Source of the DNA: a virus
Taxonomy: Duplodnaviria; Heunggongvirae; Uroviricota; Caudoviricetes
DNA length: 11,969 bases
Strand: one strand, 5' to 3'
Virus record (IMG/VR): IMGVR_UViG_2734482785_000020
Location: 1-11,969 of that record
Positions within the stretch are counted from its first letter, which is position 1, and each line of letters starts with the position of its first letter. The position numbers and the translations under genes are program-made. Of this stretch, positions 1 to 11,969 are shown one piece after another. The notes under the pieces are model-generated. The model made no database searches. It saw nothing but the letters and a program-made list of their open reading frames with translations, and was not told where the DNA came from.

Positions 1-147
1 ATGACGCAAATTCCGTTAAAAACCCTGCTACTGTGTTTAACCGCAGTAGCGATAATCTGGATCCTCCACACATCACCTTGTGAGTTGCGATTCAGGTTTG
101 CAGGAACGGAAATTGCGGCATTCTTACAATGTAAGTCTACACAGTAA
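1..147 (+). CDS. hok: Hok/Gef-family type I toxin (small membrane peptide), 48 aa
   Basis: ATG at 1 to TAA at 145-147. Translation MTQIPLKTLLLCLTAVAIIWILHTSPCELRFRFAGTEIAAFLQCKSTQ has an N-terminal hydrophobic helix and the C-E-L-R-F-R ... E-I-A-A-F-L-x-C-K signature recalled from Hok family toxins. It is below the 60-aa cutoff of the ORF track. Any mok/sok partner would lie upstream, outside the window. Confidence 0.75.
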   Translation: MTQIPLKTLLLCLTAVAIIWILHTSPCELRFRFAGTEIAAFLQCKSTQ

Positions 148-155
148 GGAACCGC

Positions 156-179
156 GACGGGGAAGTCAACTTCCCCGTC
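156..179 (+). other. Stable stem-loop in the hok 3' region (10-bp GC-rich stem GACGGGGAAG / CTTCCCCGTC, 4-nt loop)
   Basis: Perfect inverted repeat read directly from the sequence, 9 nt after the hok stop. It has no U-tract, so it is more likely an mRNA-stabilising or fold-back element than a terminator. Confidence 0.5.
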
Positions 180-237
180 AATCGGTTGCCAGGGTAAAGG
201 CCGGAACGGCACCCTATCTGCAGTCATGAACATCACA

Positions 238-270
238 AACCCGCCGTGTAAAAGCTGCGGGTTTTCTTTT
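238..270 (+). terminator. Rho-independent terminator-like hairpin oriented for the + strand (hok transcript)
   Basis: Stem AACCCGC / GCGGGTT with a 12-nt loop, followed by TTTTCTTTT. It lies between the hok stop and the 3' end of the convergent ogr-like gene. Confidence 0.45.
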
Positions 271-281
271 GGCTGGTATCC

Positions 282-536
282 TCAGGCCTGTAGTAGTTCC
301 AGCGCCATTTGCTTTTCCTCCGGGCGCATTCGTTCGATCAACAGCTTCAACACGCCGTTCTCCAGTCCGCTGGGGGTCAGTGTGTGCGAGTAGGTCAGAT
401 TCATCACCCAGGTATGCCCGCACTCAAGACGCTTGCAACGATAATACACGTCAGCAAACCGATCATCTTTCCAGAAGGTCTTTTCAATCACTGCTTGCTC
501 ACCACAGCAAAAACACCGCGCTTTCTGTCTGCGCAC
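282..536 (-). CDS. ogr: Ogr/Delta-family zinc-finger late-gene transcriptional activator (84 aa, GTG start)
   Basis: Cys-x2-Cys ... Cys-x4-Cys arrangement (RCFCCGEQ ... YRCKRLECGHTWV) followed by an aromatic-rich segment, matching the P2 Ogr / P4 Delta fold as recalled. The start codon is GTG at 536-534 with a GGAGG Shine-Dalgarno 7 nt upstream; stop TGA at 282-284. Confidence 0.75.
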   Translation of the reverse strand: MRRQKARCFCCGEQAVIEKTFWKDDRFADVYYRCKRLECGHTWVMNLTYSHTLTPSGLENGVLKLLIERMRPEEKQMALELLQA

Positions 537-686
537 TCCGGCACCTCCTGAATAAACGCTGATTGCTTGACCTGATTTTACTCGTCATCACGGGGGGGGG
601 TAACAGTCATTTCATTCAGTATCACTGTGTTAATTTTGTGTTACTGGTCTAACCAGTGGTTTTTGGGCTCTGTCTCATAATCCGGT

Positions 687-992
687 GGGGGGTGCGCAAG
701 TGGGTCACAAAGGTCACAACAGTCAAAAACAATGCTTAATATCATGATTTAAAAAGGAAATATTTGTGACCTTTTCAAGGTCACAGAAGGTCACACGAGG
801 TCACAGCCTTCAAAAATACCTTAATTATCAATTTGTTATAATTTTAATGTGTGACCTTTAGTGACTTCTCCAAAAGGTTACATGTGACTTTGTTGTGACC
901 CATTTGTGACCTTTAAAATTTACAGCAATATATTGATATATAATATGTTTTTCTATTTGTGACTTTTGTGACCCACTTGCGCACCCCCCCCC
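687..992. repeat. Iteron array (about 13 copies of GGTCACA / TGTGACC) in dyad arrangement with an AT-rich centre, bounded by 32-bp inverted repeats; putative ori/crr-like replication region or recombinase site
   Basis: GGTCACA at 703, 712, 779, 789, 799; TGTGACC or TGTGACT at 765, 850, 883, 894, 905, 958, 967, plus a degenerate copy at 861; spacing 9-11 bp. Left arm 687-718 (GGGGGGTGCGCAAGTGGGTCACAAAGGTCACA) is the reverse complement of 958-992 with one mismatch. AT-rich segments at about 820-848 and 912-957. The array is non-coding and sits immediately 3' of the recombinase and alpha-like genes. Confidence 0.7.
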
Positions 993-1190
993 AAATTTTA
1001 GCGCGACCCCTTAAAATGTTAATTAAACTCACTTGCTCTGTCTCACTCTCGCTAACTCTCTGTGATTGAAATGTATATCGCTACTGTTTGACTCTTTCTG
1101 ATAATTCGGGTGCGAGAGCAAAAAAATTGATGACGGCCACCGCTGCAATATGACCGTCATCGCATTGCTGTTACCGTTGGTTCTGGCCAA

Positions 1191-1218
1191 CAAAAAAGGT
1201 CAGTGGAAAACCGACCTC
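1191..1218 (-). terminator. Weak candidate intrinsic terminator for the alpha-recombinase operon
   Basis: On the minus strand a short stem (AGGTC / GACCT, 11-nt loop) is followed by TTTTTT, about 30 nt downstream of the recombinase stop. The stem is short, so support is weak. Confidence 0.3.
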
Positions 1219-1246
1219 TTTTGCTGCGAATGTAGCGTTCTGTGGG

Positions 1247-2248
1247 TTACTCTGCTGGCTCTTTTTGTTCAGTGAATGCCATATTAGCTATCGGGTTAAA
1301 CCTTATGGCATCCGCCAGATAGTCGGGGGAAAAATGCGCATAAGTCATCGTTTGCTGGATAGTCGCATGTCCAAGAATCCGTTGTAATGTAACGATATTC
1401 CCACCGTTCATCATAAAGTGTGTGGCAAATGTATGACGCATGACATGCGTAGCCTGCCCCTTCGGTAAATCCGGCTTCACCTCCTGAAGGATCTCCCGGA
1501 ACTTCAGATAATCAACCTGATACAACAACCCCGTCCGGCGGGTCTTAATCAGCGGCACGACCGAATCAGCCACAGGAACCGAACGGGATTTTCCGTTTTT
1601 GGTGTTAAAGAACGTCACCCGGTTGCCAATGATGTGCTCTCCACGTAGTTCCGATGCTTCACTCCATCGGGCACCAGTAGAAAGACACAGAATGGCAACA
1701 CAACGCGCATCACCCTCCAGTCGCTCAAGAAGCCGCTCAATCTCATCATCAGAAAGAAAGGCCATCTCTGTATTCTGAATTTTTAGCTTGCGTATACTGC
1801 GCACAGGGTTCGGGTTGTGAAAGACTCCTGCTTCAATCAGCACCGTGAACATGGTAGACAGAACGCACAAGTCACGATTAATGCTGGATGGCATTAAGCC
1901 GGCCTGTAATTTCTCTGATCGATACTCAAGCATAAATTTTTGTGTCATCTGGCTGGCGCGCGGATCTCCCATTTCACGAATCACTTTCTCCAGCCGGATC
2001 CTATAGGTATCGCCGTAAGCCTGGTTACGGCCATCAAGCATCCACCACGTATCAAGCAACTCTGATAATCGCCGGCGATCTGCGGGTTTAGCCAGCCATG
2101 GGTTGTTATGGAAATTCTGTAAAATATGTTTTTCGAAGACCTCTGCACTCCCTTTCCTGACAAAAATTTTCCGTATCCGTTTGCCGTACGCCCCTTGGGG
2201 CCTGATATCGAGCATCCATCGCCCATCATCCATCTTTCTGATCGACAT
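1247..2248 (-). CDS. Tyrosine site-specific recombinase / integrase (333 aa, P2-Int-like size)
   Basis: C-terminal catalytic region HVMRHTFATHFMMNGGNIVTLQRILGHATIQQTMTYAHFSPDYL carries the conserved R, H-x-x-R and terminal Tyr of the phage-integrase fold. The ATG at 2248 lies 2 nt after the alpha-like stop (TAA 2251-2253), with a GGAGG-type Shine-Dalgarno embedded in the alpha 3' end, so the two are translationally coupled. Confidence 0.85.
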   Translation of the reverse strand: MSIRKMDDGRWMLDIRPQGAYGKRIRKIFVRKGSAEVFEKHILQNFHNNPWLAKPADRRRLSELLDTWWMLDGRNQAYGDTYRIRLEKVIREMGDPRASQMTQKFMLEYRSEKLQAGLMPSSINRDLCVLSTMFTVLIEAGVFHNPNPVRSIRKLKIQNTEMAFLSDDEIERLLERLEGDARCVAILCLSTGARWSEASELRGEHIIGNRVTFFNTKNGKSRSVPVADSVVPLIKTRRTGLLYQVDYLKFREILQEVKPDLPKGQATHVMRHTFATHFMMNGGNIVTLQRILGHATIQQTMTYAHFSPDYLADAIRFNPIANMAFTEQKEPAE

Positions 2249-2250
2249 AC

Positions 2251-4920
2251 TTAAGCCCCCTCCTTGTTACTAAATATCCAGCATTTCAGTGTATCCGGCT
2301 CTTTGCTTTCTGCTGCCCCTCTTCCGACATTTGCCTGCCTGGATACCTCGCTACGGACGGTTTTGTACTCAACCAGCGGTCGGGAACGCCCAGACCTGAG
2401 AAGCTCTAACATTTCCGGCTCAGTCCTGATCTCAACGCGGTGAATGGCGGCAGTCTGCCTCAGTTGCGGGATGCTGACGGCGAACCCCTTCCGGTATTCC
2501 TTGCCGAAGTGATTTACGCCGTATTTTGTTGTGCTGTCCAGGTAGTCGAATGCCTCCCAGAACGCTATGACCTCCGGTAAGTCATCCGTCACCGCTTCAG
2601 CCTGCGCTGCTGCCATTTCCTCCAGTTCCCGGCATGTGGCATCAAGCCATTCATCCGGGATATCAATAACGCATTTCAGCGCCCTGACCAGCGCGATAAG
2701 TTGTGCGTGATTTTTGGCGATGCGGGGATGGCGAATATTTTCGCAACCGCAAAGGCGGGTCGTTTCAGGCTCTGAGATCGCCAGAAACATTTCCATAATT
2801 GCCCGTTCGCGGCTGACCGCCCGATGAATAAAGCCTGATACTTCCTCAACGGGGTAGAGTTCCAGCCGTCTCGCCGCCAGTCGGGTATCAGGTGAATGGC
2901 GTTTTTTATCGGTATATATGCGAATCAGTCGCTCAATAATTGCCAGTGAGGCATTTACCCTGGCATTCTGTGCAATCACGATAGCACCCTTAAAATCCGG
3001 GTCGTAGGTGTTGTTATTGTTGGTCTTAACGCCACGAACGCCGATACCACCGCCGTTATAGAGGCTTTTCAGGTTGTCAAAGTCAAACGCGCCTTTTTTC
3101 TGCACCTTGTCCCCCCTGTCAGCCTCAATCAGCACAACGGGCAACCCGGCGACCTGTCCAAAAGTGCGCTTCCAGCCCGCTTCAGAGCCTTTCGTTGGAT
3201 CAACGCCTTCGTAGTTGTCACGACCGCACAGTCGCCAGCAAAAATCAATCAATGTTGATTTGCCCGTTCCGGGCTCTCCGGTGACTTCAAGGAAAGGGAA
3301 AGATTCTGCTTTATCCCGGATTTGCTCACTGAACAGCGAACCCAGCCAGAAAGCCAGGGTAATAATTCCCTTTTCACCAAAAGCCAGCCAGAGATCTTTC
3401 ACCCAGAATTCTGTGAATTCATCCGGTTTTTTATAGTTAATCTGTAATGTTGGTGTTTTACTTAATGGTTTTGCGTTTATGCCATCAATTTCAAAATAAT
3501 CCTCGTCATTGATTTCGTAGGTTTTACCATTACAAACCGCGACATCATTAAACAGCCACGCGCCAATCTCTTTGTTGTATCCGATAAAATCCTGACCAAT
3601 AACCTCTTTTATTGCGGGAAGGTCATTTTTTATTAATGCGTCAAGCTGCGTAGTCGTTCCGGTATAAATACCACCTTTTGCCACATGTAACAGGCGTTTC
3701 TTAAATTCAGATGCGGATGTTAATTGTCCTGATGTAAAAGTATTTTTCACTGTAGTACCATCCGGGAACGTTACACGGAAGTAATACCATGCTTCATCCG
3801 TGTCATTGTTTCGAATGTAATAAAGCGGCGCTGGGTTACAGTTTGCGATTTCTTTTACTGCACCGGATTCCTTAAGTGCAATTTTTCGCGCTTCATCTTC
3901 GTCAACATTTCGCTCATTAATGACACGCTCAACAGCCTTCATATGGCGCTCAATATCCAGCTTGAACCAGAAAACACGGTTATCAAAAGTAAAATGAAAT
4001 TCCTTTCGCTCACGAAAGGAAAACATTATTAGCGCCTTATCTCTTGGAGATTTCGCCAGCAATAAATCACCGTAATAGCGGTATCTTTTCACATCATGGC
4101 CATGCAGCCTTCCGGCGATGTGTAAATCATTCCAGTCGCGTTTATTGCTGTTTTTACCTGGTAATGCTGCCGCCGTTCTCCAGCCGTCTTCGGCGCTGCG
4201 TTCTGCATGTTTTTTCGCGTAACGCTCACCCGCACGCCCGTTATCCAGCGCCCACACGATAACCGGGCGTGGATTATCCCCGCACAGCTTCGCCAGTTCT
4301 TCCAGCGATTTATCAGGGTAGTTCACGGCAGACATGACAGAAACGGCCGCAATGCCATTCTGGTTAAGGCTGATGGCATCAAAGATACCCTCACAAATCC
4401 AGATTTCTTTGGCCTTGCTTAAATCCGCTCCCGGATAAGCCCACCACAGCCCCTTGTAACTGCCGGAAAAATTCGCCTTGCGAGCGAAGCGTTCCGGTCG
4501 GTCTATGATGCGCTCCCACCACACGCCGTCAGCCAGCGTAAAACGCACAGTAGCGGCCTGTTCGCCGCTTTCCTTGTCCTGGTATCGCTCCTGAGTAAAT
4601 GCCCCTTTCAGTGGCTCCACAGCAATATTGCGCGCCTCCTGAAGATAAGCTGCCGCTGCTGCACATGGGTCGTCTTTCGTGCTGATATAGCGATCTGACC
4701 ATGACGAAAACACATCCGGGTAAAGTTCTTTGGTCAGCAGGTCTGTACCGCATTTATTTTCGCGGCCACAGTGTACGATGTACGGCCTCTCAAGACTGGT
4801 AAACAGTTCCTTCTTTCCACATTGCGGACAAACACCATAGCGAAGATAGTTATTTTCTTCTTTAAAGTTGTAATCACGAATAAGACGGTTAATAATCTCT
4901 TTTCTGGTGTTATGTTTCAT
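2251..4920 (-). CDS. P4 alpha-like bifunctional DNA primase / SF3 helicase (about 889 aa)
   Basis: N-terminal zinc-binding motif (CPQCG ... HCGRENKCG), TOPRIM-like EGIFDAISLNQNG, Walker A VTGEPGTGKSTLIDF and a downstream VVLIEADRGD-type acidic motif, then a roughly 250-aa C-terminal extension, as in the iteron-binding domain of P4 alpha. Start placed at ATG 4920 (MKHNTRKEI); the ORF-track start at 4944 lies inside a hairpin and is less likely. Confidence 0.85.
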   Translation of the reverse strand: MKHNTRKEIINRLIRDYNFKEENNYLRYGVCPQCGKKELFTSLERPYIVHCGRENKCGTDLLTKELYPDVFSSWSDRYISTKDDPCAAAAAYLQEARNIAVEPLKGAFTQERYQDKESGEQAATVRFTLADGVWWERIIDRPERFARKANFSGSYKGLWWAYPGADLSKAKEIWICEGIFDAISLNQNGIAAVSVMSAVNYPDKSLEELAKLCGDNPRPVIVWALDNGRAGERYAKKHAERSAEDGWRTAAALPGKNSNKRDWNDLHIAGRLHGHDVKRYRYYGDLLLAKSPRDKALIMFSFRERKEFHFTFDNRVFWFKLDIERHMKAVERVINERNVDEDEARKIALKESGAVKEIANCNPAPLYYIRNNDTDEAWYYFRVTFPDGTTVKNTFTSGQLTSASEFKKRLLHVAKGGIYTGTTTQLDALIKNDLPAIKEVIGQDFIGYNKEIGAWLFNDVAVCNGKTYEINDEDYFEIDGINAKPLSKTPTLQINYKKPDEFTEFWVKDLWLAFGEKGIITLAFWLGSLFSEQIRDKAESFPFLEVTGEPGTGKSTLIDFCWRLCGRDNYEGVDPTKGSEAGWKRTFGQVAGLPVVLIEADRGDKVQKKGAFDFDNLKSLYNGGGIGVRGVKTNNNNTYDPDFKGAIVIAQNARVNASLAIIERLIRIYTDKKRHSPDTRLAARRLELYPVEEVSGFIHRAVSRERAIMEMFLAISEPETTRLCGCENIRHPRIAKNHAQLIALVRALKCVIDIPDEWLDATCRELEEMAAAQAEAVTDDLPEVIAFWEAFDYLDSTTKYGVNHFGKEYRKGFAVSIPQLRQTAAIHRVEIRTEPEMLELLRSGRSRPLVEYKTVRSEVSRQANVGRGAAESKEPDTLKCWIFSNKEGA

Positions 4921-4933
4921 ATATAAATCCCCC

Positions 4934-4963
4934 CCCCACTGCACCTTTTGCAGTGGGGTTTTT
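4934..4963 (+). terminator. Intrinsic-terminator-like hairpin oriented for the + strand, overlapping the alpha translation-initiation region
   Basis: 10-bp stem CCCCACTGCA / TGCAGTGGGG (4934-4943 and 4949-4958), 5-nt loop, then TTTTT (4959-4963); preceded by a C9 tract (4929-4937). On the minus-strand mRNA the same hairpin has no U-tract and partly sequesters the G-rich Shine-Dalgarno of alpha. Confidence 0.45.
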
Positions 4964-4964
4964 A

Positions 4965-5270
4965 TTAATTACTCGTTACTTCTTGTTTCCGGGCAATCCC
5001 TGCGGCTTCAGCCTGACGCCATGAAAAAATGCCGCCAGAAAGATGCATACCTGATTTTATTGATTGTAATTCCCGACTAATAATATTAGACAGAGATGTA
5101 ATATCTTTATTGGTAATTTCTGCACCCACTCCGCAGCTTCTTTCATCAAACATGATAGACATAAGGTTGATGAGATTAATTACATCTGTGAGATCTTCTT
5201 TTGCATCCTCTGTAAAAAAACCAACATATTCTTTATGTAAAAGATTTGCGTAATTCTGATTTTCAGACAT
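4965..5270 (-). CDS. Hypothetical protein (101 aa), AT-rich cargo-like ORF upstream of alpha
   Basis: Uninterrupted 101-codon ORF with GGGGAG about 5 nt upstream of the ATG. The composition is visibly more AT-rich than flanking genes. No recognisable motif. Confidence 0.55.
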   Translation of the reverse strand: MSENQNYANLLHKEYVGFFTEDAKEDLTDVINLINLMSIMFDERSCGVGAEITNKDITSLSNIISRELQSIKSGMHLSGGIFSWRQAEAAGIARKQEVTSN

Positions 5271-5337
5271 AAAAACTCCCCGACCCGTAAAGGTCGAAAT
5301 ATAAATTGAATTCAGTTATCAGTGGATAATTCGGGAA

Positions 5338-5556
5338 TCAGGCGGAAAGCTGCGTCACCTTTAACGCCTTAAAGTGAGTCATTCCCAGCTCTTCCAGCCC
5401 TTCGGCTGCGCGGCGTATGGCTTCGCCCGGTCCCGTTCCGTATACCGTTGCATGTGCATGTTTGGTTAACCCACGTTTATTAACGGCATAACCCAGCACA
5501 AAGAAACGTTTTTCACCGCTGCCATTATTTTTACGGGATGCTGAACGGGTTTTCAT
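5338..5556 (-). CDS. Hypothetical small protein (72 aa)
   Basis: ORF with an AAGGTG Shine-Dalgarno about 6 nt upstream; its ATG overlaps the stop of the upstream 62-aa ORF (ATGA overlap at 5553-5556), indicating translational coupling. Confidence 0.5.
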   Translation of the reverse strand: MKTRSASRKNNGSGEKRFFVLGYAVNKRGLTKHAHATVYGTGPGEAIRRAAEGLEELGMTHFKALKVTQLSA

Positions 5557-5741
5557 TTCTTCACCTTTACCACTGATGCTGTGAGTTCTTCTTCTGGTAA
5601 TTGATATTTCGGCGCAATTTCTTCCGTATACCTGATAGCGTCCCTTGCCGCTTTTCCTTTTGATTTATATTTATATGTGGTCCGGTAGTTTTCTTCCTCT
5701 CCTGTTACCACATTACGCAATTTAATATGAATCTCGTACAT
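5553..5741 (-). CDS. Hypothetical small basic protein (62 aa, MYEIHIKLRN...)
   Basis: Start chosen at ATG 5741 because of a GGAGGGG Shine-Dalgarno 7-8 nt upstream; the longer ORF-track version (to 5870) has no ribosome-binding site and overlaps the neighbouring ORF. Lys/Glu-rich. Confidence 0.45.
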   Translation of the reverse strand: MYEIHIKLRNVVTGEEENYRTTYKYKSKGKAARDAIRYTEEIAPKYQLPEEELTASVVKVKK

Positions 5742-5784
5742 CGTTACCCCTCCATCTCCAGAATGTTTACCGTGCATTTGTGGG

Positions 5785-5931
5785 TTAATTTCCCCGTTCA
5801 TTCGTGCGGCTGTACTCCATGCGGCTGGCAGCACGCAGGGCATCATCACAGGTCTGATATTCCCTGACATGAAAAAACTGACGAACGTCGCCGCTCTGGC
5901 AGTTAATCAGGGTGATAAGGAGCTTAAACAT
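5785..5931 (-). CDS. Hypothetical small protein (48 aa, MFKLLITLINCQSGD...)
   Basis: ATG at 5931 preceded by GGGAGG about 6 nt upstream; the start overlaps the stop of the upstream ORF. Short, so support is limited. Confidence 0.35.
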   Translation of the reverse strand: MFKLLITLINCQSGDVRQFFHVREYQTCDDALRAASRMEYSRTNERGN

Positions 5932-6445
5932 TGCACGCCTCCCGGATACGAATACGGGAAACAAAGACCAGACGGGATGCCGGAAGCAGGGCGCGTGCTT
6001 CGCGCTCACTGGCAGCGGTAACGGTATGAAGGCGAATATTTTTACCGTGGCACTGCATAAAGCGCCAGATAAAATCAGGGCGTGTTGATATAGCCATTTT
6101 GGCGGCTCCTCTTACTGATTTACGGAGTCTCGCCAGCACGCTGCTAAACATGGTGGCGGGACGTAACAGGGTTAGCAGACTGGCGTAAGAGAAACCAGCG
6201 AGCACAAAGGCTCCCCCATTACGCCCCGCCATAATACGGGGTAGGGTGGAATTACGGGCACAAAAAAACCGCATTACGGAAATATAGCGGCTACCCGCTC
6301 TTACAATCAGGCTGCTAAACCCGGCACCTGTTTTCTGAGGCGCGGGCAAACGATACGCCATGACAAAAAAGCGAGTCAAGCAATATTGCAAATTATTTTT
6401 GTGCAATTGCGCTGAGTGATTGATTTCTGTACGTAAAAAGTTCAT
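5924..6445 (-). CDS. Hypothetical protein (about 173 aa), Arg/Ala/Ser-rich
   Basis: Only long ORF in any frame across 5924-6451. ATG at 6445 with GGGA 6 nt upstream (an alternative ATG at 6451). The unusual composition leaves the frame and boundaries uncertain. Confidence 0.4.
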   Translation of the reverse strand: MNFLRTEINHSAQLHKNNLQYCLTRFFVMAYRLPAPQKTGAGFSSLIVRAGSRYISVMRFFCARNSTLPRIMAGRNGGAFVLAGFSYASLLTLLRPATMFSSVLARLRKSVRGAAKMAISTRPDFIWRFMQCHGKNIRLHTVTAASEREARALLPASRLVFVSRIRIREACNV

Positions 6446-6493
6446 AATCATTCCCGAACTGTAGATTCATAGATTTTTCCTTTTGTTGGTGAA

Positions 6494-6519
6494 CGGCCTG
6501 CATCCTGCGGGCCGTTTTT
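6494..6519 (+). terminator. Terminator-like hairpin oriented for the + strand between the capsid-like gene and the small-ORF chain
   Basis: Stem CGGCCTGCA / TGCGGGCCG (one mismatch, 3-nt loop) followed by TTTTT at 6515-6519. On the minus strand it is preceded by an A-tract rather than followed by a U-tract. Confidence 0.35.
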
Positions 6520-6531
6520 CTTATCCAGCTA

Positions 6532-7584
6532 TCACGAATTAAACGTAATCACCCCTTCATCCACCGCCGCATAAAGGTTCACATTCGCCAGTCCATAGCC
6601 CTGATGACGCCATGCCCGCATGTTCAGACGTTTGGTGTCTTCGTTCATGTCGAACTCTGTACGGTAAGAGCCTTCAATGATGTTAATCAGCAGGTTCGAA
6701 AGTGTGGTCACAGCCAGGCGTCCACCCGGCATAAACGGCGGCACAAAGGCAAAATGCCCGGCAATGGTGCTTCCCCATGCGCTGGCGGCTTCGGTGTCTC
6801 CTGCGCCGTTTGCGGTGCTGAAAAGACGCAGACGTTCAGCAGCTGCAAGTTCTGATCCCACCATCACCACAAGGCGCGGATCGTTCTGCCATTGTGCGGG
6901 AATTTTCGTTCTAATCAGATGCTGCGCCAGTGCATCCACCCCCGGAAAATCACCGCCTGCGCCCAGCGTGATGGCATCGCTGATAATCTGTCGCCCTTCG
7001 CTGGTCTTCCTGGCAATTTCATGCCAGCCGGGCGCAACATCCTCGCCGTTCGGGTTGATGTTCGGTGCGGTGAAGGTTGCCGCTGACGTGCCGTTAAAGC
7101 CAATCCGCAGATCATCCAGGTAAATTTTACTGGTCAGATAGCCACACAAAATCCCCAGCAGTGCATCGCGGTTTTTATCGTCATTCACTGCATTGGCCAT
7201 CACAACCAGGTTAATCCAGTCGAGATATTCACATGAGTCCATCTCATAGCATTCAACCGGAGAGCCTTTAATATCCATGGCACGGCTAAAGCGTCCTTCC
7301 TCGGCGCGTCCGGTGGATAAGCGCGCATCCCCAATAAGGTTAATAGCGGACTGATGCGGATTAACTGACAGATATTTTATTTGCCCGGAAAGCCAGTTAG
7401 AGGGGGAAATAAAATGCACAAACGGATTTTTTTGCGTGTATGCGCTGATACGTGCGTAAAGCTCTCTTTCTGCAAGCACGGTATTAATGGCGCTTTCGTT
7501 TTCGTTCATCGCCGGAGATGAAATATTGATACTTTCAAGCACGCTTTCGGCTTTATCTTTCAGTTCATTAATATTAAAAAACAT
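6532..7584 (-). CDS. P2 gpN-family major capsid protein homolog (about 350 aa)
   Basis: Alignment by eye with the recalled P2 gpN sequence: GFNG...V.GW, G.GGD...DAL and DP.LVV.VG..L.A blocks (ours LRIGFNGTS ... VAPGW ... LGAGGDFPGVDALA ... QNDPRLVVMVGSELAA) in the same order and spacing. Start placed at ATG 7584 (MFFNINELKDK) with an AGGGGA Shine-Dalgarno; the ORF-track start at 7656 would overlap the upstream gene by about 60 nt. Confidence 0.65.
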   Translation of the reverse strand: MFFNINELKDKAESVLESINISSPAMNENESAINTVLAERELYARISAYTQKNPFVHFISPSNWLSGQIKYLSVNPHQSAINLIGDARLSTGRAEEGRFSRAMDIKGSPVECYEMDSCEYLDWINLVVMANAVNDDKNRDALLGILCGYLTSKIYLDDLRIGFNGTSAATFTAPNINPNGEDVAPGWHEIARKTSEGRQIISDAITLGAGGDFPGVDALAQHLIRTKIPAQWQNDPRLVVMVGSELAAAERLRLFSTANGAGDTEAASAWGSTIAGHFAFVPPFMPGGRLAVTTLSNLLINIIEGSYRTEFDMNEDTKRLNMRAWRHQGYGLANVNLYAAVDEGVITFNS

Positions 7585-7594
7585 ACATTTCCCC

Positions 7595-8470
7595 TTAAAT
7601 AATATCTTTCTTTTCGGTATGTACAGACAGCAAAGCGGTCGCCGCATCCCGTTCAATTCGTGGCATACTTATTCTGGTATATTCCTGTAACGTCATCGCG
7701 TGGCGAATGGATTCGCTGCCGTTGCTGTAATAATGCTTCGTCAGAGTGCGTAACGCATCATTAATATATTCCTGCCGCAAATGGTTGTATTTAGCCATTA
7801 CTGAATAAGGAATGAATTTGATTTCCTCATTGCGTAAAGTGACGATCGCACTGACTGCCGAAATAATCTCCTTATAAAGATTGATACGGCGATTTGTTTC
7901 CGCCTCCAGTCCGTCAAGCGAAGCGGAAAAAATCCACGCATTATCGCCATCATGAGAAAGATTTTTCCCTGTATTAATAAGGCGTATAGCTTGCTCACAG
8001 GTGGCGCGCGTCTTGCCGCAATTTCGTTTCTCATTTTCAAGCAGATGCGTTTCATGCTCGATAACGTCTTTTACTGAATACCGATCACCATAAGGGTTAT
8101 CAGCACCAGTGGGCTGTAACGGAGTGTTACGCAATTCGCTGATTTTATTTTCCTGAGCAGTCACTTTGTTTTCTGCTTCGCGGATTTTTTGCTGAATTCG
8201 CGCAATGGCAATATCGCAATCTTCCGCAATATCCCGCATTTCTTCATCACTGATTTCATGCACTAATGGCAGGCAATACCCTGTGATATCGCGATATTCC
8301 TCGGCGTGTCTGTGCATGTATTTTGATGCAATGATATCTATCAGGCGAATAACCAGAGAGACTTCAGATTGTCCCTTTTGATATACAAAACTACGGGACC
8401 ACGATGCAATCGTGGTCATTTCCGGGCAGTTTTTAAAAACGGGTGTTAATATCGTGATTGTGTTTTCCAT
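7595..8470 (-). CDS. Hypothetical protein (291 aa), unknown function, with a predicted helical central segment
   Basis: Long ORF with GGAG upstream; stop 10 nt before the capsid-like start. The central segment (IARIQQKIREAENKVTAQENKISELRN) looks coiled-coil-like. No catalytic motif recognised. Confidence 0.6.
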   Translation of the reverse strand: MENTITILTPVFKNCPEMTTIASWSRSFVYQKGQSEVSLVIRLIDIIASKYMHRHAEEYRDITGYCLPLVHEISDEEMRDIAEDCDIAIARIQQKIREAENKVTAQENKISELRNTPLQPTGADNPYGDRYSVKDVIEHETHLLENEKRNCGKTRATCEQAIRLINTGKNLSHDGDNAWIFSASLDGLEAETNRRINLYKEIISAVSAIVTLRNEEIKFIPYSVMAKYNHLRQEYINDALRTLTKHYYSNGSESIRHAMTLQEYTRISMPRIERDAATALLSVHTEKKDII

Positions 8471-8475
8471 AAATG

Positions 8476-8787
8476 TTACTCCGGTAAATCAGTGTCTCTC
8501 TTTTTCTTTTTAGCGTGTTCATGCGGGTTATTTGCTTCGGCAATAGTTGGCGGATTGCGCAACCACCATAAAACATCACTTAACAACCAGGTGCATGAAC
8601 AGCGCCCCAAAGAATGACGGGGAGGAAAAGCGCCGATTTTCTCCAGTTCCCAACGCCGGGAGCGTGAAAGCGTTGTCATCTTTTTACACTTCTCTTCCCT
8701 GATGCGTTCTTCGCAGTCAAAACCATACTCGGCGAGTATGGTGCGACGCTGTTCTGGAGTTGGTGGAATGAATGCGGATTGAGTCAT
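8476..8787 (-). CDS. AlpA-like helix-turn-helix regulator with an N-terminal extension (103 aa)
   Basis: C-terminal half (MTTLSRSRRWELEKIGAFPPRHSLGRCSCTWLLSDVLWWL) fits the AlpA/Xis-type HTH pattern (S.S.....E..G.FP....LG.....W...EV..W). GGGAG Shine-Dalgarno 7 nt upstream of ATG 8787. The roughly 36-aa N-terminal extension is unexplained. Confidence 0.6.
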   Translation of the reverse strand: MTQSAFIPPTPEQRRTILAEYGFDCEERIREEKCKKMTTLSRSRRWELEKIGAFPPRHSLGRCSCTWLLSDVLWWLRNPPTIAEANNPHEHAKKKKRDTDLPE

Positions 8788-8860
8788 GTTTTTCTCCCGT
8801 GCTCTGAACTTTTCGGGGGTTATTTTTCACAAACCGCTCCAATCAGCTCAAGGAGAAGAG

Positions 8861-8894
8861 GGCTAAATTAGCCTACCGGAAGGCTAATTTAGCG
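8861..8894. promoter_or_regulatory. Tandem palindromic operator-like sites (GGCTAAATTAGCC, 8 bp, GGCTAATTTAGCG) upstream of the alpA-like gene
   Basis: Two 13-bp near-palindromes centred 21 bp apart (two helical turns); together they form a 12-bp perfect inverted repeat. They lie in the 121-bp gap between the cargo ORF stop and the alpA-like start and are followed on the + strand by a T-rich run. Confidence 0.45.
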
Positions 8895-8908
8895 TTTAGA
8901 GAATAATT

Positions 8909-9964
8909 TTATCTTTTTAACCAATTGGTTATAGTGTCCTTCGAAATAGTAAATTTCTTTCCATTTTTTTCTGCAATCGCCTCTAGTGCTGTCGCTATCT
9001 TGGTTGGTTGGTCTTTCACGTCACTGAGATACTCACCTATAAGTAAAGCCAAAACATCCCGCATACGGCCAGATACGCGTTCTGACTTAGGTTTTGAGTG
9101 TGTTAATTTGTTGTCTTGGGATGTTGATTTGCTATCAGTCTCTGGAAGGGGGCCAAATGCGGAGGCTCTCCATTTATGAAGATTAGACATAATATAGGAG
9201 CTGTATTTCTTTGTCATTACACCATCACTACCCTCATTATTAATAACACTTTTAATAGTTAAAAAATCTGACTTTGACAGATACAAATCATCAATATCAA
9301 ACTTAATTTCTTTATCAGTTAACAGGCTTACGCTGAAATTACTATCAGGCGCATATATTCTATTGTCTTCACCTGGTTGAATTAACGGGCGAAATTTCCA
9401 TACACTGAAGAAAAAATCGGCATCTAATCCAAAAAAACCATGAACACTAGCATAGTATTTTAAATTTGGTGTAGAGGCATCTATTCCATATCGTGCTAAA
9501 CTTTCTAATTCTCTTTTAAGTGAGTCAGGAAATAATAAAACACTATTCACCACGCAAAAATCATCGCTCACACATAAATTAGTTTTGTAAGTAAAACTTT
9601 GATAAAAATCCCTTACATCCAGATTATCTATTGCAGATATTCCACCTGAACGCCTTTCTATTATATCAACAATGCGCCCGGCAATCTCGCTAAAGTTATT
9701 AAATGACTCATCAAGCCCTAAAAAGACCTCTTTTTCTGACTCATTCAATTCTTGTAAATCGTTAACAAAATCAATTAATTTATCATGCCAGACAAAATTA
9801 TCAGCACAAAATGGTTCAACATAGCAATAACCATCTTCAATCAATATATATAACCTTATATTCCCAGTCATAGCCCAATGAATAAAATCATCAACTGTAC
9901 AACCTAACAACTCCGCAGCCCTTGTTATTGGGTAAAACTCTCTTAGCGGTAATGCCATATTCAT
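8909..9964 (-). CDS. Hypothetical cargo protein (about 351 aa) with N- and C-terminal helix-turn-helix-like segments; AT-rich
   Basis: A 357-codon ORF open from TTG 9982; first ATGs at 9964 and 9958. N-terminus YPITRAAELLGCTVDDFIHWAMTGNI and C-terminus KIATALEAIAEKNGKKFTISKDTITNWLKR both resemble HTH motifs; the middle roughly 200 aa has no recognised motif. The composition is far more AT-rich than the integrase and the backbone, and the gene starts about 15 nt after the integrase stop. Confidence 0.65.
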   Translation of the reverse strand: MNMALPLREFYPITRAAELLGCTVDDFIHWAMTGNIRLYILIEDGYCYVEPFCADNFVWHDKLIDFVNDLQELNESEKEVFLGLDESFNNFSEIAGRIVDIIERRSGGISAIDNLDVRDFYQSFTYKTNLCVSDDFCVVNSVLLFPDSLKRELESLARYGIDASTPNLKYYASVHGFFGLDADFFFSVWKFRPLIQPGEDNRIYAPDSNFSVSLLTDKEIKFDIDDLYLSKSDFLTIKSVINNEGSDGVMTKKYSSYIMSNLHKWRASAFGPLPETDSKSTSQDNKLTHSKPKSERVSGRMRDVLALLIGEYLSDVKDQPTKIATALEAIAEKNGKKFTISKDTITNWLKR

Positions 9965-9978
9965 TCTCGCAAATAAAA

Positions 9979-11181
9979 TCAATCTCTTTTATTCAGTTTT
10001 TCCAGATATTCAAACCAGTCATTTAACGCTTGTAATTTAAAAGGAATATACTGGCTAAGGTTATAGTTAAATTCTGCCGAGCCAGCATTATAAACGTGCC
10101 CTAATAATGACTCGACAATATGAGGCATCACCCCCATATTATTTAGCCCCGTTGAAAATGTTCGTCTTAAATCGTGTAGCGTCCATTTCTCATTATGGCC
10201 AAACATTTTATACATTCGACGACCTTTCAGGGATACGGCTGTGTGTGTTCGTTCTTCCCCTAAAAGCAATCCTGTATCTCCTGTTTTTCCCTTTAAATCT
10301 TTTAACCAACCTCTTATAGCTACAGGTATTGGGCGAACAATTTTTTTACTGTTTTTGCTATTCCCCCGTGGAACTGTCCATTCCCATGAAATGAAATCCC
10401 ACTCACTCCAACGGGAGCGGCGCAACTCTGCCGTTCTGGCACCAAATAAAATCAATAGTTTTATTAGTCGAGAAAAATAAATATCTCCGCGCTCTTCTTT
10501 TCCAAAACGCCAAAGATCTGCTAATTCCCTGTCACTCAACACTCGATCGCGTTGCCCGGCAGCTTCGCCCACATCGCTTAAAGTTAAGTGGGCAAGCGCA
10601 TCGCAAACGGCATAATGCCGAACATTACAGAACCTCAATGCCTGTTTTGCGTGTTGAAACATTCTTCCGGCTGTTTTGGGGCTGATTGCACGTATTTCGT
10701 CAAAGCAGTTAACCCAATACCGCGTATCGCACCGTGATAACGGAAAACTCCCAATTCTGGGGTAAATATGTTTGCACAATTGCGCCCGTATCAGATCTTC
10801 ATCTTTGCGTTTGTGCCTTGCATAGTTAACAAGCCAGTACTCCAGCGCATCCCGAACAGTAACAGGGGTGCGGGTTTCTTCGGTAAAAAGCTGAATCTCA
10901 ATTTTGGGGTTAAGTCCGTTAGCCAACCAGTGGCGGCAGCGTTCCCGCCATTTACGGGCATCTTTCAAACTCATATCAGGATAACGCCCCAACGTTACCC
11001 GATTAAGAGTGCTATCACGCCCACCGAGCCGATATGAAAAAACCCAGCTCACATGCCCTCTTGTGGACAATCTAACCCCCAGCCCTTCACCATCAGCAAT
11101 CATCTCAACATGCTTTCTGGTTGTGCCTGTCAGGGCTTTTAGTTTCCTGTCACTCAGCTTATTAGTTCCAGACACCTTCAT
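9979..11181 (-). CDS. P4-type tyrosine integrase (about 400 aa)
   Basis: N-terminal arm-binding-type domain (GLGVRLSTRGHVSWVFSYRLGGRDSTLNRVTLGRYPDMSLKDARKWRE) and C-terminal catalytic core (LHDLRRTFSTGLNNMGVMPHIVESLLGHV...). Start at ATG 11181 (MKVSGTNK) with GGAG upstream; the ORF-track extension to 11271 has no ribosome-binding site. Confidence 0.85.
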   Translation of the reverse strand: MKVSGTNKLSDRKLKALTGTTRKHVEMIADGEGLGVRLSTRGHVSWVFSYRLGGRDSTLNRVTLGRYPDMSLKDARKWRERCRHWLANGLNPKIEIQLFTEETRTPVTVRDALEYWLVNYARHKRKDEDLIRAQLCKHIYPRIGSFPLSRCDTRYWVNCFDEIRAISPKTAGRMFQHAKQALRFCNVRHYAVCDALAHLTLSDVGEAAGQRDRVLSDRELADLWRFGKEERGDIYFSRLIKLLILFGARTAELRRSRWSEWDFISWEWTVPRGNSKNSKKIVRPIPVAIRGWLKDLKGKTGDTGLLLGEERTHTAVSLKGRRMYKMFGHNEKWTLHDLRRTFSTGLNNMGVMPHIVESLLGHVYNAGSAEFNYNLSQYIPFKLQALNDWFEYLEKLNKRD

Positions 11182-11188
11182 AACTCCA

Positions 11189-11214
11189 ATGTGTATACAC
11201 GTATTGATACACAT
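11189..11214. promoter_or_regulatory. Palindromic element (ATGTGTAT-N10-ATACACAT, containing the perfect palindrome GTGTATACAC) abutting the integrase ribosome-binding site
   Basis: Read directly from the sequence; it sits 8-33 nt upstream of the integrase start codon. Candidate operator or RNA structure controlling integrase expression. Confidence 0.35.
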
Positions 11215-11355
11215 AACATGGTAATACTCAGAAAAACTGAAGTCACCCAAGAACAGAAAATGCTGTAACACAATGGAATTAAATAATTTTTTATACGGAA
11301 CGTGAAAAAGTCAGAAAGGGAGAGAACAAGAAAAACATTACTTCTTGCGTTATTT

Positions 11356-11383
11356 TCGGCACCTTTTATGTAGCGAAGGTGCC
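11356..11383. other. 9-bp inverted repeat CGGCACCTT / AAGGTGCCG with a 10-nt loop in the integrase-upstream intergenic region
   Basis: Perfect inverted repeat in AT-rich intergenic DNA, followed on the + strand by a T-rich stretch. Could be a terminator, an att-associated site or a regulator-binding site. Confidence 0.3.
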
Positions 11384-11670
11384 GGAATATATTCTCTTTT
11401 GTTACTTATTTCTATACCGTGCACAATATTTTTATCCCTCATATTTATAGGGTAAATTACCTGTAAAGTAGTGTCTAATTACCCGCCTCGCAAACTCCAG
11501 TTTTCAAATATCTATTTCAGGTCAAAAGATTGAATTATTCACTGGAGACGATTCGTAAATTCGCTGGATTTTTGACTAAAGTTTCTTTAGGATTTGTCTC
11601 ATCGTATGATTAATTACACCAATCGTTCAACGTCTTGCTGATAAGTGATGGCGATTATATGAGGTTAGCA

Positions 11671-11799
11671 ATGCCTTCTGGAAATCAGGAACCCCGCCGC
11701 GATCCTGAATTAAAACGTAAAGCCTGGCTGGCGGTTTTTCTTGGTTCTGCACTTTTCTGGGTGGTTGTCGCACTGCTGATTTGGAAAGTGTGGGGATAA
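11671..11799 (+). CDS. Small single-pass membrane protein (42 aa)
   Basis: ATG 11671 with GAGG about 7 nt upstream. Translation MPSGNQEPRRDPELKRKAWLAVFLGSALFWVVVALLIWKVWG has a charged N-terminus and one hydrophobic helix. Stop TAA 11797-11799. Confidence 0.5.
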   Translation: MPSGNQEPRRDPELKRKAWLAVFLGSALFWVVVALLIWKVWG

Positions 11800-11801
11800 C
11801 T

Positions 11802-11969
11802 ATGGTCGGTCAGGAGCAACTGGAGTCGTCACCATTATGCCAGCATAGTGACAATGAAACAGAAACGAAACGGGAATGTTCCGTCGTTATTCCAGACGAC
11901 TGGCAACTAACATCGCAGCAGCAAGCCTTTATAGAACTGTTTGCTGAAGATGATCAGCCGAAACAATAA
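11802..11969 (+). CDS. Small acidic protein (55 aa)
   Basis: ATG 11802 lies 2 nt after the upstream stop, with GGGGA 6 nt upstream. Translation MVGQEQLESSPLCQHSDNETETKRECSVVIPDDWQLTSQQQAFIELFAEDDQPKQ; stop TAA at 11967-11969, the window end. Confidence 0.45.
   Translation: MVGQEQLESSPLCQHSDNETETKRECSVVIPDDWQLTSQQQAFIELFAEDDQPKQ

Follow-up and report, generated by a model that had tools for sequence, protein, structure and literature searches.

Among the closest described parallels to the locus analyzed here are the replication origins of phage-related chromosomal islands. In the pathogenicity islands of Staphylococcus aureus (SaPIs), 6-12 iterons are located 3' of the rep gene, with an AT-rich centre between oppositely oriented groups, and a self-loading helicase recognizes them through its winged helix (PMC9371898). 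In the phage-inducible chromosomal islands (PICIs) of Escherichia coli, an AT-rich region has a set of iterons on each side, and plasmid maintenance that depends on pri-rep requires them (PMC6092414). The initiators of these islands are helicases that load themselves, in some cases with a primase fused to them, and origin specificity is set by their C-terminal winged helix (PMC9371898, PMC6092414). Here, we analyze a non-coding repeat array (positions 687-992) within a stretch of 11,969 nucleotides from a Caudoviricetes record (IMG/VR record IMGVR_UViG_2734482785_000020, positions 1 to 11,969; hereafter the window), which contains most of an integrated island of ~12.5 kb. The island, whose immunity and late control are of the P4 style, is a satellite of P2-like phages, and it encodes an 889-residue primase-helicase, the proposed initiator. 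Because the iterons covary with the C-terminal domain of this protein in related islands, we consider it likely that the array is a cis-acting replication site of the satellite, most probably its origin, and that it is bound by the C-terminal domain of the satellite's own primase-helicase. So understood, the locus adds a member to an established class, the iteron origins read by a self-loading primase-helicase. An earlier reading made from the letters alone (the sequence-only reading) had proposed a site resembling the ori or crr of satellite P4; this proposal is supported by the concerted change of the iterons, by the C-terminal covariation, and by a position 3' of the initiator gene that recalls P4 crr and the SaPI and PICI origins.

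Architecture of the iteron array

The dense GGTCACA array noticed earlier is real. The heptamer occurs ten times exactly within 703-973 and once more in the window (position 6706), as compared to ~0.99 copies expected in 11,969 bases, and none of 200 shuffled sequences reached 11 copies. Three copies carry a single mismatch (GGTTACA at 876 on the + strand, and AGTCACA at 883 and 958 on the - strand) and one carries two (AGTGACT at 860-866, a full site in relatives), for a total of 14 iterons with GT(C/T)AC cores; nearly every relative has the same number. The consensus in the window is the 8-bp sequence AGGTCACA. The iterons form four clusters (>>, <>>>, <<><<< and <<, with > denoting the + strand), in which neighbours are spaced by 9, 10, 10, 10, 11, 11 and 9 bp. 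Cluster 1 contains two + strand copies (703-709 and 712-718). Cluster 2 (765-805) begins with a - strand copy (765-771), followed by three + strand copies that point towards the central spacer (779-785, 789-795 and 799-805). Cluster 3 (850-911) consists of two - strand copies (850-856 and the degenerate 860-866), one + strand copy (876-882, GGTTACA) and three - strand copies (883-889, 894-900 and 905-911), and cluster 4 has two copies on the - strand (958-964 and 967-973).

The outer clusters are parts of long terminal inverted repeats. The left arm (679-719, + strand) comprises a G-run, TGCGCAAGT and the iterons at 703-709 and 712-718, and the right arm (957-997, - strand) comprises the iterons at 958-964 and 967-973, ACTTGCGCA and a C-run. 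The arms are 41 nt long and 90% complementary, and the 32-bp repeats described in the sequence-only reading correspond to their 32-nt core, which matches at 31 of 32 positions. That reading had also placed a single AT-rich centre in the array; the DNA is indeed AT-rich, but it forms three spacers (720-764, 806-849 and 912-957; 17-27% GC) instead of one centre. The central spacer (806-849, 20-27% GC), which is the proposed melting site, has convergent iterons on either side, with those at 779, 789 and 799 pointing rightward into it and those at 850 and 860 pointing leftward. It contains a match to the consensus WATCAANNNNTTR of integration host factor (IHF) at 826-838 on the + strand (TATCAATTTGTTA), and a second match lies on the - strand at 926-938 (TATCAATATATTG) in the right spacer (912-957, 17.5% GC). 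The window as a whole holds three such matches, two of them in these spacers, as compared to 0.68 expected. No open reading frame (ORF) of at least 50 residues overlaps positions 563-1028, which bears out the earlier description of a non-coding module of roughly 300 bp.

Coupled variation of the iterons and the primase-helicase

The sequence-only reading would have fallen had the motif array proven to be a widespread intergenic repeat unrelated to this element. A DNA search with positions 600-1100 yielded matches in 6 of 5426 E. coli genomes and none in phages or plasmids, so the array is not a repeat of that kind. Our comparison rests on 13 close relatives that carry the array (three complete E. 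coli genomes out of the six with a match, a contig of an Escherichia sp. genome, and nine contigs from IMG/VR). In these relatives the number of iterons (one fewer in one locus), their order, their orientation and their spacing are all as in the window, and both IHF matches are kept in 13 of 13, the central one even though its N positions vary. Three iteron types (A, B and C) are found among the window and its relatives: the window and L001 have AGGTCACA, eight loci have CGGTTACA and three have AGGTTACA. The types differ at two iteron positions and the copies change in concert, every one of them, whether direct or inverted, being altered between types. Such a change in direct copies cannot be forced by a hairpin or cruciform, whereas it can be by one protein that binds a specific sequence. 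The single-strand fold of 679-997 (z = -11.6) was rejected as an explanation of the array, as its z score does no more than restate the inverted arrangement and it cannot account for the concerted change of the direct copies. Both arms of the inverted repeat are also altered together in L009 and L014 (GCGCAA to GCGGAA on the left, and TTGCGC to TTCCGC on the right), and clusters 3 and 4 are separated by 53 bp in types A and C and by 63 bp in type B, a difference of one helical turn.

The proposed initiator gene (2251-4920, - strand) encodes a Zn-ribbon/Toprim/P-loop protein of 889 residues (897 from an alternative GTG start at 4944) that matches phrog_1139 over its full length. Pfam searches of the 889-residue protein detect Toprim_2, Toprim_3 and, weakly, DUF5906, and give no match to Pox_D5 (PF03288); a sequence search against PDB chains returned nothing useful. 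Local similarity to P4 alpha is colinear and, in BLASTP, confined to the Toprim domain (32% over 97 residues) and the Walker A region. The comparison of iteron sequence with C-terminal variation that had been proposed in the sequence-only reading was carried out, and it reveals that iteron type covaries with the end of the protein. Sixty-eight alignment columns of the primase-helicase separate the iteron types, all of them at residue 439 or later. Over residues 1-438 the distance is 0.035 within types and 0.041 between them, such that the primase half does not track iteron type, but over residues 805-889 it rises from 0.036 within types to 0.323 between them. The codons for residues ~805-889 (2254-2508, - strand), a predicted winged helix, are the smallest segment that tracks iteron type. 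Two recombinants, L006 and L007, are informative in this regard: their residues 761-800 are unlike those of the other type B proteins, while residues ~805-889 and the iterons are of type B. This pattern couples iteron type to the last ~85 residues of the protein, across an intervening gene that is freely swapped.

AlphaFold models generated from a 42-sequence alignment have a predicted local distance difference test (pLDDT) score of 91.5 for residues 680-889 and 92.8 for residues 775-889, and they confidently predict a winged-helix fold for the C-terminal domain. This prediction is in line with the comparable C-terminal extension that had been claimed for the alpha-like protein. The most relevant structures matched by the modeled domain are the SaPI Rep (8tch) and Cch (5dgk), and RepA and RepE are also among the fold matches. 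The three iteron types, together with their matching winged-helix variants, probably define separate replicon specificities.

From this organization we infer how the site may operate. The primase-helicase would recognize the 8-bp iterons via its C-terminal winged helix, and because the iterons point inward across 806-849, two oppositely oriented oligomers are proposed to assemble on the convergent clusters around this spacer. IHF would bend the DNA at its conserved spacer sites, the AT-rich DNA would melt, the helicase would load itself without DnaA, and the Toprim domain could lay primers for the host polymerase.

The location of the array 3' of the initiator gene is conserved beyond the close relatives. 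At least 928 homologues of the primase-helicase are present in Enterobacterales, Ralstonia, Pseudomonas and others, and a tblastn search of plasmids with the initiator matched large, probably phage-like records only and no small replicon. The Yersinia homologue L015 (77% identity) has both the integrase cassette and a CGGTTACA array. Distant homologues, at 52-61% identity, lack a neighbouring integrase gene. Among them are the Salmonella satellites L016 (61%) and L017 (54%) and Pectobacterium L022 (54%), in which the primase-helicase gene is instead followed directly on its 3' side by an array of like design built from GGTTACA or CGTTACA. L017 and L022 repeat the positional map of the window nearly site for site, including terminal inverted repeats formed by a G-run, CGGAAA and two iterons; the IHF consensus of the central spacer is present in both and in L016. 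In Providencia (L018) the gene resides in a P2-like prophage, with a CGTTACA array directly 3' and additional partial copies of the module. Genes of the primase-helicase family follow cox and a few small genes in L018 (5001-7661), L019 (4001-6658) and L025 (3001-5658), which are a Providencia prophage, a Salmonella prophage and the Escherichia phage ESSI2_ev239, respectively. This is the position at which P2 presumably has gene A, its rolling-circle initiator, and the arrangement implies that replication modules have probably been swapped between helpers and satellites.

Comparison with known replicons and alternative roles

Like the SaPI and PICI origins, the array has short iterons that are located 3' of an initiator gene and are opposed around an AT-rich region. 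However, the initiator has no detectable sequence similarity to the Reps of those islands, their two simple sets contrast with an array whose 14 iterons form four clusters, separated by three AT-rich spacers that hold two IHF sites and bounded by 41-nt inverted repeats with G-run caps, a 1-kb integrase cassette separates gene and proposed origin, and the element carries P4-type immunity (a C4-like RNA and an Icd-like protein) and an ogr/delta gene. P4 alpha and the protein described here share the order Zn ribbon, Toprim, P-loop helicase and C-terminal DNA-binding tail; iteron clusters occur in both orientations in both elements; crr lies directly 3' of alpha as the array lies 3' of the initiator gene; and each element exploits P2-like phages as a satellite and has delta/ogr, AlpA-type and C4/CI-RNA functions. 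The iterons differ, being (A/C)GGT(C/T)ACA here and TGTTCACC (type I) in P4. In keeping with the earlier claim that the motif is distinct, the window contains no exact copy and no cluster of TGTTCACC, while P4's own copies are seen in L023. There is also one iteron site here instead of ori and crr, the 120-bp direct repeats of crr are absent, and the protein is not alpha in the family sense, since it does not match PF03288. In sum, the features of the SaPI, PICI and P4 class (a repeat cluster, opposed iterons around AT-rich DNA, a 3' location and a matching winged-helix domain) are present, whereas those of P4 ori and crr proper (type I iterons, a Pox_D5/PF03288 alpha and two separate sites) are not. 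Theta plasmids (pSC101, R6K, pPS10 and, through RepE, F) likewise combine winged-helix domains with repeats at helical-turn spacing, an AT-rich region and an IHF site. Their small Reps recruit host DnaA, DnaB and DnaC, whereas the binding domain of the present protein forms one chain with a helicase and a primase, and the array contains neither a DnaA box (one mismatch or fewer) nor a GATC.

The sequence-only reading erred in placing the array next to the alpha-like gene, which is 1.3 kb away, with the 1-kb integrase gene and 255 bp of conserved non-coding DNA between them. The non-coding DNA from the integrase stop to the array (993-1246) is 80-91% conserved in the relatives, as compared to 61-82% for the array. 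At 995-1022 on the - strand it contains a putative sigma-70-like promoter (TTAACA, 16 nt, TAAAAT; 10 of 12 positions) whose sequence is conserved in the relatives and which reads into the array towards ogr/delta. This element bears on an unlikely alternative, in which the array is bound by the primase-helicase but replication starts elsewhere, the array being a crr-like enhancer, a copy-control or incompatibility site, or an operator that gates the 995-1022 promoter. The P4 cluster directly 3' of alpha is crr, with ori 4.5 kb away, the promoter match is directed into the array, and 14 sites exceed the numbers in SaPI origins (PMC9371898). On the other hand, the window has no second iteron cluster anywhere, and iterons that converge on an AT-rich spacer marked by IHF sites have the layout that is classic for an origin. 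A role of this type is compatible with an origin, and the array could serve both.

Two alternatives invoke the recombinase gene that lies between the primase-helicase gene and the array (1247-2248, - strand). Its 333-residue product is a P2 Int homologue (PDB 5c6k, E = 5e-92) with the N-terminal arm-type domain (Pfam Int_N), and it is additional to the island's own P4-type integrase (9979-11271, - strand). As already considered in the sequence-only reading, the repeats could be arm-type sites of an attP-like site used by this P2-type tyrosine recombinase for integration, excision or multimer resolution. The P2 gene order is ogr-attP-int, a distance of 255 bp separates the end of the recombinase gene from the array, the gene encodes an arm-type domain, and IHF sites with repeats in both orientations are typical of attP arms. 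Arm sites would be specific to their integrase and inherited with it, however, and this is not the pattern observed. The integrase is 88% identical to those of P88-type P2-like coliphages, yet the DNA shared with these phages is the ORF alone (nt 1286-2211, 86.7%) with no attP, and their att region is without a GGTYACA cluster. Three integrase alleles (50-58% identity) occupy the same slot between the primase-helicase gene and the array, their divergence is limited to the ORF between conserved flanks, and they mix freely with the iteron types: allele 1 occurs beside all three, allele 2 beside B and C, and allele 3 beside B. Of 204 variable integrase columns, 0 separate the types. In addition, arrays of the same design follow the primase-helicase gene in the absence of an adjacent recombinase gene. 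The sharing of the ORF alone and the largely independent assortment of the alleles rule against arm sites, which we regard as very improbable.

Even less credible is an invertible switch of the fim type, in which the 41-nt inverted repeats would bound a ~240-bp segment flipped by the adjacent recombinase. Long inverted repeats around a short non-coding segment beside a tyrosine recombinase gene, with promoter-like hexamers inside and beside the segment, are suggestive of such a switch. The inner segment is, however, itself an ordered iteron array, and the inverted repeats and array persist where no recombinase gene adjoins them. A switch would also be found in both orientations, but the segment between the inverted repeats has a single orientation in all 14 loci (the window and its 13 relatives, which are independent assemblies), and the idea fails on this point.

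Some observations limit the case for an origin read by the primase-helicase. The label permutation used to assess covariation ignores shared ancestry, and by this measure the integrase is also weakly associated with iteron type (p ~0.013), because allele 3 has been seen with type B alone. Furthermore, a k-mer scan of the sequence around the gene revealed no array in L005, L019, L020, L021 or phage ESSI2_ev239 (L025); the link between array and gene is therefore common but not universal.

The proposed origin may also have wider connections. The 995-1022 promoter-like element reads through the 14 iterons towards ogr/delta, so initiator occupancy could couple replication to late-gene switching. 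The slot between gene and array could in turn be a landing pad for helper-derived functions directed at att sites of the helper itself, as is hinted by integrase ORFs without attP, in three alleles, that appear to have been captured repeatedly from P2-like helpers. The iteron/winged-helix pairs would then constitute incompatibility types that let related satellites coexist. We offer this combined scheme as speculative, and doubt that all of it holds.

There is little to recommend the notion that the array is a packaging signal (cos or pac) for a helper terminase. It is prompted by the lack of a P2/186/P4-type cos (GGCGAGGCGGGGAAAGCAC, up to three mismatches) in either the window or the whole L001 island, which leaves the packaging site unaccounted for. 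The repeats covary, however, with the satellite's own primase-helicase, no phage record has the array DNA, and the P2-like phages and prophages with this initiator family carry their terminase genes elsewhere.

If the array is the origin, these findings identify, for a large and uncharacterized family of ~890-residue primase-helicases, a probable origin and the domain that probably binds it. No characterized origin was found for this family, and a literature search on GGTTACA iterons yielded nothing of relevance. Its members serve both phage satellites and P2-like phages, replacing gene A in the latter. Satellites such as this one would escape the published definition of P4-like elements (PMC8628076), because they yield no profile matches to alpha (PF03288), psu or epsilon and carry a homologue of the P2 capsid protein in place of a recognizable sid. 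The three natural variants, which combine two iteron positions with a compact winged-helix stretch, provide a system in which to study the evolution of initiator-origin specificity and replicon incompatibility, and they represent three candidate sets of orthogonal parts for satellite-based vectors.

Gene content of the satellite and minor features of the array flanks

In the close E. coli relatives the island is inserted between hpt and gcd. All assigned genes are on the - strand with the exception of a hok-like gene (1-147, + strand), which encodes a Hok/Gef-type toxin ORF. The ogr/delta zinc-finger gene (282-536, - strand; 84 residues) follows. The relatives are non-homologous to the window left of ~640, which marks the hok-like and ogr/delta genes as a variable accessory region. 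An Icd-like gene, a C4-type antisense RNA, its a1b1-like targets and an isrK-like RNA are located at 6149-6356 (- strand), a segment that we assign as a P4/P1-type RNA immunity module. The C4 RNA matches RF01695 with 74 bits, above the gathering score; the isrK-like and c4-a1b1 target matches adjoin it and are both under their own gathering scores. A P2-family major-capsid homologue (6532-7656, - strand) matches Pfam Phage_cap_P2 (E = 5e-43) and is below the cut-off of the NCBIfam equivalog. It is preceded by a gene for a 291-residue protein (7595-8470, - strand) without a family match above threshold. The Psu profile has no match in the satellite, and its absence beside a capsid homologue suggests that capsid redirection may follow a strategy other than that of P4. 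An AlpA-like regulator is encoded at 8476-8787 (- strand). Apart from the integrase ORF, the element has no DNA in common with any phage record.

Repeats of other kinds were also encountered. A cluster at 1-610 of L005, a Moraxella metagenome-assembled contig whose primase-helicase homologue is 39% identical, is a CRISPR array (repeat GTCGCACCCCACACGGGTGCGTGGATTGAAAC, ~10 units) unrelated to the iterons. Rfam matches within the array of the window (MIR9563 and MIR398; E 0.2-0.3, far under the gathering scores) were dismissed as artefacts of dyad symmetry.

Several small features lie around the array. A hairpin is present at 1129-1161, and a terminator-like sequence can be discerned by eye near 1190-1225. 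Each end of the array has a -10-like hexamer 3-5 bp beyond its terminal G-run (CATAAT at the left end, TAAAAT at the right), and a similar one is present in L017, L018 and L022. An 11-bp direct repeat, GCTCTGTCTCA, occurs at 667-677 and 1035-1045, at distances from the array of 10 bp (left copy) and 43 bp (right copy), and both copies are conserved in the relatives; as they do not adjoin the ends of the inverted repeats, they are probably not a target-site duplication. Finally, a third G-run (CGGGGGGGGGT) followed by a one-mismatch iteron, GGTAACA, is located at 588-605, ~85 bp left of the array. This unit resembles the terminal unit of the array, is also found in L009, and may be an outlying half-site.
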